DNA from: Escherichia phage APCEc01
DNA length: 64,000 nt
Direction: 5' to 3' (one strand)
Sequence record: NC_029091.1
Below are positions 52,626 to 53,602 of the stretch, in pieces. The translations under genes and the position numbers were made by a program. The first letter of the stretch is position 1; every line of letters begins with the position of its first letter. The notes under the pieces were generated by a model, which worked only from the letters and a program-made list of their open reading frames with translations, had not been told where the DNA came from and did not search any database.

Positions 52626-52632
52626 TATAAAT
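52625..52632 (+). promoter_or_regulatory. late-promoter-like TATAAATA upstream of rIII
   Basis: TATAAATA directly after the gp31 stop. Confidence 0.4.
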
Positions 52633-52749
52633 AACTATATGAAGAGAACACTCTTCTAAGCGGTAGCCTACAACTGAGAGACTTGTCGAAAGAAGGTGAA
52701 ATTCAGACGAACGTGGCTACTAAATATTATCTCGAATTGAGAATTTAAA

Positions 52750-52998
52750 ATGATTAAACAATTACAACACGCTCTTGAACTGCAACGAAACGCATGGAAT
52801 AACGGTCACGAAAACTACGGCGCGTCGATTGATGTTGAAGCCGAAGCACTGGAAATCCTGCATTATTTCAAACATCTGAACCCGGTACAGGCAGCTTTGG
52901 CTTCTGAACTGGAAGCAAAAGATGAACTGAAATATGCTAAGCCTTTGGCTTCTGCAGCTCGTAAAGCAGTACGTCATTTTGTTATTACCCTTAAATAA
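52750..52998 (+). CDS. rIII: rIII lysis-inhibition accessory protein
   Basis: 82 aa, same as T4 RIII; position after gene 31. Confidence 0.8.
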   Translation: MIKQLQHALELQRNAWNNGHENYGASIDVEAEALEILHYFKHLNPVQAALASELEAKDELKYAKPLASAARKAVRHFVITLK

Positions 52999-53295
52999 GT
53001 TTTAGGTGATTCGCTACCTTAAGTGCGGCTAGAAAATCGAGGAGCCGTCGAACTGTCTGATTAATGATTTGCGAATCATTATAGTTTTAAGGCCCCGGCA
53101 GTTTTACGGTGTACCTCTTGAATGTATTTTGTACTATCACGCGTCAGAAAAAGGTTATCTGTCTAAGTCGTGGTTGGTATGATGACGGGTTTATGGTTAT
53201 CCTGTCGGTAAATATTCAAAACCTAAGTACCCCTTTGAGGGCTTTCGCAGGCAATGCCAATAAGTCCTGCATTTTCATTTAAAAGAGAATTTATA

Positions 53296-53472
53296 ATGGC
53301 AAAACAAGTTAAAGCAAAGAAAGCAGTTGAAAAGAAAGTTGGTGATTCTAAACGCGCTGGCTACAAGCGTGGGTCGAACTCTCGTATCAATCAAACTGTT
53401 GAGAAGATCATGCGCCGAGCACGTGCGGTTCTTCGAGATGATGCTTCTCGTTTTGGAAAGGTTGTTGCATAA
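53296..53472 (+). CDS. hypothetical basic small protein
   Basis: 58 aa from ATG 53296 (the track ATG at 53254 has no RBS); Lys/Arg-rich. Confidence 0.4.
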   Translation: MAKQVKAKKAVEKKVGDSKRAGYKRGSNSRINQTVEKIMRRARAVLRDDASRFGKVVA

Positions 53473-53477
53473 TTTTA

Positions 53478-53499
53478 GGGAGACTTCGGTCTCCCTTTT
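53478..53499 (+). terminator. rho-independent terminator
   Basis: GGGAGACTTCGGTCTCCC plus TTTT; identical to the hairpin at 38467. Confidence 0.75.
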
Positions 53500-53602
53500 G
53501 TGCGTTTAGGGCGGAAAAAGTTTAAAAAGATGTTTACTCTCCTGTAGGATGTGTTACTATAGACTTGTACCACCTAATCAATAAAACAACCTGGAGAACA
53601 AA

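Follow-up and report, generated by a model that had tools for sequence, protein, structure and literature searches.

The 64,000-nucleotide (nt) stretch of Escherichia phage APCEc01 (NC_029091.1) analyzed here, hereafter the window, contains a 297-nt spacer (positions 52999-53295) between rIII and gene 30.9. Our analysis favors, with somewhat better than even confidence, the view that this spacer is a transcribed non-coding array of independent RNA cassettes: the leading one is an orphan ToxI unit, ToxI being the antitoxin of the abortive-infection system ToxIN, and another, a pseudoknot (PK), is probably a mimic of TenpI, the antitoxin of TenpIN. Judged by sequence comparison, at least one and probably two of the cassettes are type III antitoxin mimics, and because the first is a near-copy of ToxI, the phage probably carries RNA decoys against host defenses of the ToxIN kind. 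In the window, the cassettes run in the order A-B-C-PK-D2-D3. Sequence homologous to the spacer was found in 771 phage records, T4 included (~76% identity, with deletions), and the spacers of annotated phages were aligned together with 40 IMG/VR loci retrieved with the RIII protein. Since the folding energy of the whole region was unremarkable (minimum free energy, z = -1.1 on the + strand and -0.7 on the - strand), structure was tested by comparison. The initial annotation of this DNA had proposed a candidate small RNA or regulatory region and suggested an alignment with related phages; compensatory base changes were indeed present in modules B, C, and PK, and the kind of element had been rightly guessed (conserved, structured, non-coding + strand RNA with covariation), although the nature of its pieces went unrecognized.

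Module A (53004-53039, + strand; AGGTGATTCGCTACCTTAAGTGCGGCTAGAAAATCG) is very likely a single 36-nt ToxI-like repeat (pseudo-ToxI), as indicated by its identity to ToxI, by blastn, and by covariation. It is identical at 32 of 36 positions to ToxI of pECA1039 (ToxI_Pa). The ToxI unit used for this comparison matches, at 100% identity, the tandem repeats of pECA1039 and of ~50 small (~6-kb) E. coli and Salmonella plasmids, and the pECA1039-type repeats immediately precede a gene with the annotation 'type III toxin-antitoxin system ToxN/AbiQ family toxin'. When the whole spacer was searched by blastn against plasmids and 5,426 complete E. coli genomes (7.3-28 Gb searched), only toxI arrays were matched, and these through query positions 1-44 only, with 87-90% identity and E values of 1e-4 to 7e-3. 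A second ToxI family, found on the IncX4 plasmid pU90-1 and on Lelliottia and Hafnia plasmids, is identical to module A over its first 25 nt (25/25), as is the pseudo-ToxI of phage phiTE. The differences between module A and ToxI_Pa comprise U9C and A25G, which form a compensatory pair, 2T for 3T, which leaves a loop one U shorter, and one extra A; all fall among the changes that separate the phiTE pseudo-ToxI from ToxI. In published mutagenesis, antitoxic activity was unaffected by the phiTE differences outside group 4, singly or together, and the group 4 residues C27 and U28 proved essential against ToxN_Pa, C27G or U28A alone abolishing ToxI activity (Blower et al., PMC3475682). Module A keeps C27-U28-A29, with G26 to G30 reading GCUAG as in ToxI_Pa, and is hence a hybrid, its 5' 25 nt following the IncX4/Lelliottia/phiTE family and its GCUAG the pECA1039 family. 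By the published mutagenesis, the core of module A should be active.

Among 17 variants from phages and bacteria, 97.3% of cells keep the pseudoknot pairs of ToxI (AGGU/ACCU and YGC/GCR), and three of the pairs carry changes on both sides; none of 500 shuffles reached the observed values, and slid controls gave at most 57%. Module A is single-copy in the window, and 0 of 100 window shuffles matched it. T4-like lineages carry variants of it that track the two bacterial ToxI families, with UGC/GCA and CGC/GCG stems. AAAU, the published cleavage and processing motif of ToxN (AA^AU), occurs at 52993 and 53034, and the 3' boundary GAAAAUC holds the latter copy as in family-2 ToxI.

On this evidence, a function of module A as a ToxI mimic is plausible. 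The spacer would be transcribed as part of the rIII/30.9 message; infection would shut off host transcription, the unstable host ToxI would decay, and the ToxN so freed would meet the phage-made ToxI-like pseudoknot. ToxN may trim this pseudoknot at the flanking AAAU motifs and would then be occupied or inhibited, so that abortive infection is blunted. The single repeat may also be a seed for tandem expansion or for recombination with a plasmid toxI, events that have been demonstrated experimentally for phiTE (Blower et al., PMC3475682).

ToxI-like repeats were detected in 100 phage records, unrelated phages included, and are annotated only in phiTE. Unannotated examples are found in Erwinia phage IT22, Vibrio phage RYC, and three further phages: Salmonella phage 7-11 has a single unit bounded by AAAU on either side and followed by a terminator, Kuravirus XT18 also has a single unit, and T5-like Klebsiella phage PWKp9S has a tandem pair within its tRNA cluster; in the unrelated-phage loci L178, L179, and L180, the repeats span 701-741, 701-740, and 701-767, respectively.

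PK (53179-53228, + strand) is an H-type pseudoknot of 50 nt with a TenpI-like architecture, and it is the most conserved piece of the spacer, occurring in 52 of 53 related loci. Stem 1 joins 53184-53189 to 53201-53206 (6 bp), stem 2 joins 53190-53196 to 53222-53227 (6 bp, one bulge), and the A-rich loop GGUAAAUAUUCAAAA occupies 53207-53221. Both stems covary among 24 phage variants, with a score of 0.474 versus 0.211 ± 0.024 for shuffled alignments; 0 of 500 shuffles reached the observed score, and slid controls remained at or below 0.159. A scan of viral contigs for the PK loop motif returned mostly chance matches; the real copies were found once per genome and always at the same T4-like locus, after rIII.

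PK was compared with TenpI because type III antitoxins are pseudoknots. Starting from an E. coli TenpN sequence in a published supplement, we retrieved TenpN loci on plasmids, whose toxins pass the NCBIfam TenpIN cutoff; tandem ~50-nt repeats, such as TTGTGGCGGTAGGAACATCCCCACGTTAAAAACCCAAATTCCCTGT, lie upstream of these plasmid tenpN genes. A further 23 TenpN loci came from metagenomes, giving 27 distinct TenpI units in total, which share the order stem 1, stem 2, A-rich loop and have a covarying stem 2. This agrees with a 2025 survey of tenpI, in which stem 1 is conserved, stem 2 covaries, and a stretch of A residues is present (PMC12283969). The PK of the window has this architecture, with stem 1, an A-rich loop, and a stem 2 that closes the pseudoknot, and its elements follow the same order as in the 27 units; the stem 1 sequence varies among phage PKs, whereas it is nearly invariant in TenpI. 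When a covariance model built from bacterial TenpI only was run on 24 T4-like loci, 11 of the 13 best matches fell exactly on PK (E 0.011-1.5), and the best E value in reciprocal nhmmer searches between PK relatives and TenpI was 9e-4. The window copy is linked to TenpI through the homology among PK copies, since it scores 60.5 bits against the phage PK model. PK is therefore, with moderate confidence, probably related to TenpI, the window copy being a diverged member; the homology runs along a chain through other phages, and convergence or a chance architecture could be the explanation. In the proposed scheme, PK would probably be analogous to module A, a more diverged mimic directed at TenpIN.

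The bacterial arrays themselves have a further feature. TenpI arrays upstream of tenpN (L183-L208) are bracketed by a covarying helix just before the terminator (GTAGTT...AACTAC changing to GCAGTT...AACTGC), which suggests that the entire TenpI precursor is closed by a stem.

The independence of the cassettes is evident from their distribution. Spacer length in relatives ranges from 120 to 416 bp, and recurring cassettes appear in varying order, inserted, deleted, or permuted. T4 has a diverged (degenerate) A followed by B-PK-D2-D3 and no C, EP01 has PK-D2-D3 only, and Yersinia phage TG1 has D2-PK-A-terminator after rIII, without 30.9. Module A is accessory, being present in the window, JK36, ATK47, VR7, and TG1 and missing from RB69, JS09, and EP01. 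The 64-kb window holds no extra copies of the cassettes by blastn, pattern search, or covariance model, except for a module upstream of rIII that is described below.

Module B (53039-53117, + strand) is a long irregular hairpin of three helices and 25 bp, detected by RNAalifold and covariation: helix 1 (53039-53042/53114-53117), helix 2 (53044-53057/53097-53110), and helix 3 (53062-53069/53074-53081, with a UGCG loop), with a conserved asymmetric internal loop of ~15 nt at 53082-53096. Seven of its 25 pairs show compensatory double changes among 16 distinct variants, 99.3% of cells are paired, 0 of 500 shuffles reached the observed values, and slid controls gave at most 62%. Three of the pairs are invariant or majority G-U pairs; on the opposite strand they would turn into A-C mismatches, which favors the + strand RNA as the molecule that folds. 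The initial annotation had noted an 8-bp stem, TAATGATT-TGCG-AATCATTA, within this module; the stem exists, but at 53062-53081 and not at 53056-53075, six bases off, and it is the apical helix of the conserved 25-bp structure, not a chance hairpin. Module C (53134-53176, + strand), supported by covariation and by its presence or absence among phages, is a hairpin with an inner helix (53145-53148/53158-53161) and the loop AAAAGGUUA; 5 of its 12 predicted pairs show compensatory changes among 8 variants. It is missing from T4, and phages F1 and pSs-1 have a different module of ~150 nt in its place. The two remaining elements may be conserved hairpins. D2 (53231-53241, + strand) is a small GC hairpin (CCC/GGG) in the motif GUACCCC-UUUGA-GGGCUU that recurs in nearly all loci, before or after PK, with its pairs kept and hardly varying. 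D3 (53247-53270, + strand) has the stem GCAGG/CCUGC and a conserved 14-nt loop, CAAUGCCAAUAAGU; it is 100% paired and has one compensatory pair (A-U to U-A, in loci L028 and L042), and for its region RNAalifold favors a competing fold without covariation. As insulators or processing sites, B, C, D2, and D3 may allow the individual pseudoknots to fold and to be released; alternatively, they may be a leader of 30.9 or further decoys.

Several observations weigh against the interpretation of these cassettes as antitoxin mimics. Module A occurs only once, within an mRNA and between rIII and 30.9, and is not arranged in tandem upstream of toxN; because of this placement, we consider it an orphan ('pseudo') repeat like that of phiTE and not a toxin-antitoxin locus. 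Its exact hybrid sequence was found in 0 of 185,579 GTDB species representatives (genome scan). Its 5' tail is UUUU instead of AUUC, and the upstream AAAU is more distant, 9 nt and not 4 nt before AGGUG; the flanking AAAU sites carry little weight in any case, because AAAU recurs every ~83 nt in this genome. Wild-type phiTE, with 1.5 pseudo-ToxI repeats, was still aborted and needed expansion (PMC3475682). T4, which is restricted by E. coli toxIN, carries a degenerate module A, and the sole published counter-defense of the T4 family is a protein, TifA (PMC10853763); the published toxIN phenotype of RB69 says nothing about module A, since RB69 lacks it. B, C, D2, and D3 had no bacterial counterpart either in the spacer blastn against plasmids and E. 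coli genomes or in nhmmer searches against type III loci. As for PK, the window copy was detected neither by the bacterial TenpI covariance model (E <= 10) nor by nhmmer, the matches of that model in PK relatives are individually marginal, the phage PK model finds TenpI at only 16 bits, and an exact scan of bacterial genomes for the PK motif gave 0 matches. PK is also single-copy with no toxin gene nearby, where TenpI forms tandem repeats upstream of TenpN, and its near-universal presence, always at this locus, fits a housekeeping cis-regulatory role equally well as a decoy.

This last point leads to the most serious alternative, which we regard as possible but doubtful: the cassettes would be ordinary cis-acting elements of the rIII-30.9 mRNA, such as stabilizers of the rIII 3' end, processing sites for RNase III/E/G or RegB, or a translational leader or operator of 30.9 like the gene 32 pseudoknot, and the ToxI-like piece would be a functionless relic of recombination with a toxIN plasmid. 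The occurrence of PK in 52 of 53 loci, one per genome and at a fixed locus, is more regulatory-like than expected of an accessory counter-defense. The 30.9 start follows the end of PK by 68 nt, and for the operator pseudoknot of gene 32 the distance to the start codon is 67 nt (PMC3014915); gp30.9 is small and very basic, and a weak hairpin that could sequester the Shine-Dalgarno (SD) sequence precedes 30.9 in many lineages. T4, with its degenerate copy of module A, is still toxIN-sensitive. Module B has a conserved GGAG (53041-53044), the RegB core motif, and its length suits an RNase III-type substrate; however, this GGAG takes part in base pairing, and the sequence 3' of it departs from GGAGRAYARAA, the consensus of strong sites. 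A leader or operator of 30.9 also accords poorly with TG1, which keeps D2, PK, A, and a terminator after rIII without 30.9, so the cassettes are not tied to that gene, and their freely varying order and presence would be unusual for one integrated leader. Nor does module A look like a relic, as it is not decaying: its pseudoknot is kept by compensatory changes, C27-U28-A29 is retained, and its variants follow the two ToxI families.

A different explanation starts from the mosaicism itself. The region could be a PeSL-like DNA cassette for recombination or regulation, in which a terminator stem-loop is coupled to an early promoter and modular shuffling is promoted; its hairpins would then act at the DNA or terminator level and not as functional RNAs. 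The strikingly mosaic spacer, with cassettes inserted, deleted, and permuted, would be expected under this explanation, as would an early promoter between B and C. The published T4/PST PeSL promoter consensus is TTTACW-N17-TAYWAT (PMC4122927), and SV76 and JS09 have TTTACG-N17-TACTAT at the B/C junction, on the 5' edge of C. The window has a weaker form at the same junction, GTGTAC-N17-TACTAT (53109-53137, + strand), a candidate weak T4-type early promoter by comparison with that consensus, which a sigma-70 scan did not pick up. The promoter-like pair GTTTTAC/TTGAAT (53101-53107/53118-53123) singled out by the initial annotation is not a valid -35/-10 pair, because the two elements are only 10 nt apart, and the consensus scan found no promoter there. 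A genuine terminator-plus-promoter pair does lie just downstream: 53477-53560, after 30.9, is a typical PeSL-like unit, with the terminator GGGAGACTTCGGTCTCCCTTTT followed by the early-promoter consensus GTTTAC-N17-TACTAT upstream of 30.8. By contrast, A, B, C, and PK all lack a U-run behind a stem; the cassettes do not recur in the rest of the 64-kb window, unlike PeSLs, which are dispersed repeats; T4 entirely lacks the promoter-bearing module C; and the conserved G-U pairs and compensatory changes indicate selection on a folded + strand RNA. We consider the PeSL-type explanation improbable.

The region around the spacer (975 bases) is up to 98% identical to Mosigvirus genomes (Shigella phage JK36 and Escherichia phage SCS57), which identifies the window, by its sequence, as that of a Mosigvirus, a T4-like phage. 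The local gene order is cd, 31.1, 31, rIII, spacer, 30.9, terminator, 30.8. The rIII gene (52750-52998, + strand) encodes 82 aa, matches the PHROG 'lysis inhibition accessory protein' (7.6e-43), and is annotated as rIII in relatives. Gene 30.9 (53296-53472, + strand) encodes a very basic protein of 58 aa that belongs to PHROG 1427, of unknown function, and matched no Pfam family; it is annotated in relatives together with an intrinsic terminator 3' of it (GGGAGACTTCGGTCTCCCTTTT, 53477-53497, + strand). In RefSeq T4, a 244-bp spacer separates rIII from the 58-aa gp30.9.

No credible gene lies between the stop codon of rIII (52998) and the start codon of 30.9 (ATG, 53296), in agreement with the initial annotation, which had called the stretch poor in open reading frames (ORFs). 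That the region is nevertheless a decayed or tiny protein gene, for example the 57-aa ORF at 53109-53282 or a gp30.9 starting at 53254, is highly improbable. Some records do annotate small ORFs here (38 aa in G53, 43 aa in NicPhage, and two ORFs in SV76), and the T4T record uses the upstream ATG. The annotated ORFs differ by record, however, and the only ORFs in the window spacer (37 and 57 aa) have TTG or GTG starts and no ribosome-binding site. Across 11 genomes (the window and 10 relatives), frame, start, and stop all differ owing to indels, which are not multiples of three, and the substitutions are compensatory for RNA pairing, not synonymous. The annotation of 30.9 is itself inconsistent, with 72 aa in T4T (HM137666) and RB14 versus 58 or 59 aa in RefSeq T4, RB69, and the Mosigvirus records. 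The ATG at 53254, which the initial annotation had named as the possible start of a conserved protein gene that would refute its proposal, is the start of the 72-aa form in T4T, but in ATK47 and G53 the longer frame is interrupted by a 1-nt indel, and the short form is therefore the conserved one. With no ORF conserved among relatives, the earlier suggestion of a decayed or hidden gene fails, and nothing in this analysis pointed to the replication or packaging site that had also been suggested. These comparisons lead us to conclude that 52999-53295 is truly non-coding.

On the + strand of the spacer, a scan with sigma-70 and consensus models found neither a promoter nor a terminator-like site, and the first predicted intrinsic terminator past rIII comes only after 30.9. 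The cassettes would thus sit in the rIII 3' untranslated region (UTR) and be read through from the rIII promoters. ARAGORN detected no tRNA. A scan of 52999-53295 with Rfam release 15 gave no match at E <= 10, and 7 related loci likewise gave none; since genuine toxI arrays (from pECA1039 and two other plasmids) also went unmatched in a control, this covariance-model check, which the initial annotation had recommended, is negative but uninformative for type III antitoxins. Rfam appears to be without any type III antitoxin RNA model, a blind spot for genome scans.

Other features flank the array. A T4 late-promoter motif, TATAAATA, lies at 52626-52633 directly after the gp31 stop codon, by which the rIII leader module and the entire spacer would also be transcribed late. 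That leader module, in the gp31-rIII spacer (52660-52737), is a conserved structured element of ~65-75 nt just upstream of rIII (GGTAGCCTACAACTGAGAGACTTGTCGAAAGAAGGTGAAATTCAGACGAACGTGGCTACT) with no Rfam match. In distant T4-like phages it sits upstream of 30.9, its outer stem changed in a compensatory manner (GGGAGC...GCTCCC), and at both sites a small hairpin comes directly after the module, with the potential to mask the SD sequence. The initiation region of 30.9 (53285-53298) reads GAGAAUUUAUAAUGG, which resembles the A/U-rich consensus target of the RegA repressor (AAAAUUGUUAUGUAA) and may be a site of that kind.

Many distant T4-like phages carry two more modules in the spacer, of ~150 nt and ~65 nt. 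The conserved ~150-nt module (ACGGCAAGTGCATGCTACCCCGAGG...GCTAACGGTGTGCAACAGATAAGAG) takes the position of module C in many T4-like phages, though not in the window; it is found at 517-676 in locus L009, at 1452-1590 in L036, and in L010, L044, and most of L030-L049. By eye, two of its loops are complementary to each other and covary (CGATGG/CCATCG in some phages, CAATGA/TCATTG in others). Rfam gave no match for this module, and blastn gave no bacterial homologue; when a 417-nt spacer of a distant phage, containing the ~150-nt and three-way modules, was searched by blastn against plasmids and E. coli genomes, only its ToxI-like part was matched. Nothing meaningful emerged when B, C, D2/D3, and these two modules were searched by nhmmer against a set of 34 ToxIN/TenpIN loci.

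A broader version of the decoy hypothesis, which we think unlikely, would make the spacer a hot-swappable RNA counter-defense island in which each cassette counters a different RNA-binding toxin of abortive infection, as a decoy or an antidote. Its cassettes would be the pseudo-ToxI, the TenpI-like pseudoknot, B, C, and D3 and, elsewhere, the ~150-nt kissing-loop module and the three-way module (here upstream of rIII), all expressed constitutively as the rIII 3' UTR and swapped between phages by recombination. If this were so, the spacer would hold the first phage-borne TenpI mimic, and T4-family phages would carry multi-valent RNA anti-toxin arrays alongside TifA.

The narrower interpretation, an orphan ToxI copy and a probable TenpI mimic among other structured cassettes, has consequences of its own. 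Pseudo-ToxI is an already known kind of element, with one experimentally characterized case (phiTE). In an incomplete library, searches for T4 small RNAs and for accounts of this spacer gave nothing specific, and we found no earlier description of a T4-family locus joining a ToxI repeat, a TenpI-like pseudoknot, and other structured cassettes. The literature searched describes the T4 family as countering ToxIN only via TifA, and yet a well-preserved ToxI repeat is present in many Mosigvirus, Gaprivervirus, and Tegunavirus genomes, in a fixed position that would be constitutively transcribed, beside a pseudoknot resembling the antitoxin of a second type III family. If functional, the cassettes would help to explain differences in ToxIN/TenpIN sensitivity among therapeutic T-even phages, would provide a natural setting in which to study escape that begins with the expansion of a single antitoxin repeat, and would indicate that the 'empty' intergenic DNA of dense phage genomes can hold RNA counter-defenses missed by protein-centered annotation and by Rfam. 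The unannotated ToxI-like repeats in Salmonella phage 7-11, Kuravirus, and T5-like Klebsiella phages suggest that the strategy is widespread.

Among known systems, the gene 32 mRNA operator of T2, T4, and RB69 resembles PK in being an H-type pseudoknot in a T4-family mRNA, located ~67 nt upstream of the start (PMC3014915). Unlike the operator, which is followed by an unstructured tract of UUAAA repeats, PK is followed by structured hairpins; its sequence and locus differ, and it persists in one phage without 30.9. PeSL cassettes (Arbiol 2010; Comeau 2014) are likewise small intergenic modules tied to mosaic insertions, deletions, and swaps among T4-like genomes. PeSLs are dispersed units of a terminator stem-loop and an early promoter, whereas the window cassettes are single-copy, lack U-tracts, and show RNA-level covariation and pseudoknots; 52999-53295 contains no terminator-like + strand site and, as a promoter, only the weak GTGTAC-N17-TACTAT. 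TifA (Srikant 2022; Guegler 2023), a protein that traps ToxN on RNA, serves the purpose proposed for module A, ToxN neutralization, in the same phage family. TifA is encoded elsewhere, no homologue of it having been found in the 64-kb window, and the two TifA papers, which deal with T4 and RB69 versus toxIN, mention no ToxI-like RNA in T4-like phages (PMC10853763).

The closest likenesses are to the type III antitoxins. TenpI, from E. coli, Enterobacter, and Klebsiella plasmids (Nadig et al. 2025, PMC12283969), shares with PK a unit of ~50 nt, a covarying stem 2, and the same order of elements, namely the 5' strand of stem 1, the 5' strand of stem 2, a short loop, the 3' strand of stem 1, an A-rich loop starting CG(U)UAAA, and the 3' strand of stem 2; in a hand alignment, the PK copies of distant T4-like phages are ~64% identical to TenpI overall and 77% identical in the core. 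Unlike TenpI, whose stem 1 is invariant (GUGG/CCAC), the window PK has GACGGG/CCUGUC as stem 1 and no GGUAGG motif, and it occurs once, unaccompanied by a tenpN gene. Genuine ToxI consists of 3.5-9 tandem repeats that immediately precede toxN and have a promoter and a terminator of their own, whereas module A is single and has no toxin gene; the two share the 36-nt unit, the pseudoknot pairs, and an AAAU-containing 3' boundary. The pseudo-ToxI of the Pectobacterium phage phiTE (NC_020201, 106714-106772), annotated 'ncRNA pseudo-ToxI, weak antitoxin to ToxN', differs from module A in having 1.5 repeats beside a tRNA in an rv5-like phage, where module A is one repeat in the rIII 3' UTR of a T4-like phage (Straboviridae). 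Their 5' tails also differ, and C27-U28-A29 is mutated in phiTE to GAC, a change that alone inactivates the repeat against ToxN_Pa, whereas module A retains these residues. In other respects, module A is like the phiTE element: an orphan 36-nt repeat in intergenic DNA of a lytic phage, on the transcribed strand and without a toxN gene, with the same 2T form and extra A and 89.7% identity over a 39-nt alignment.

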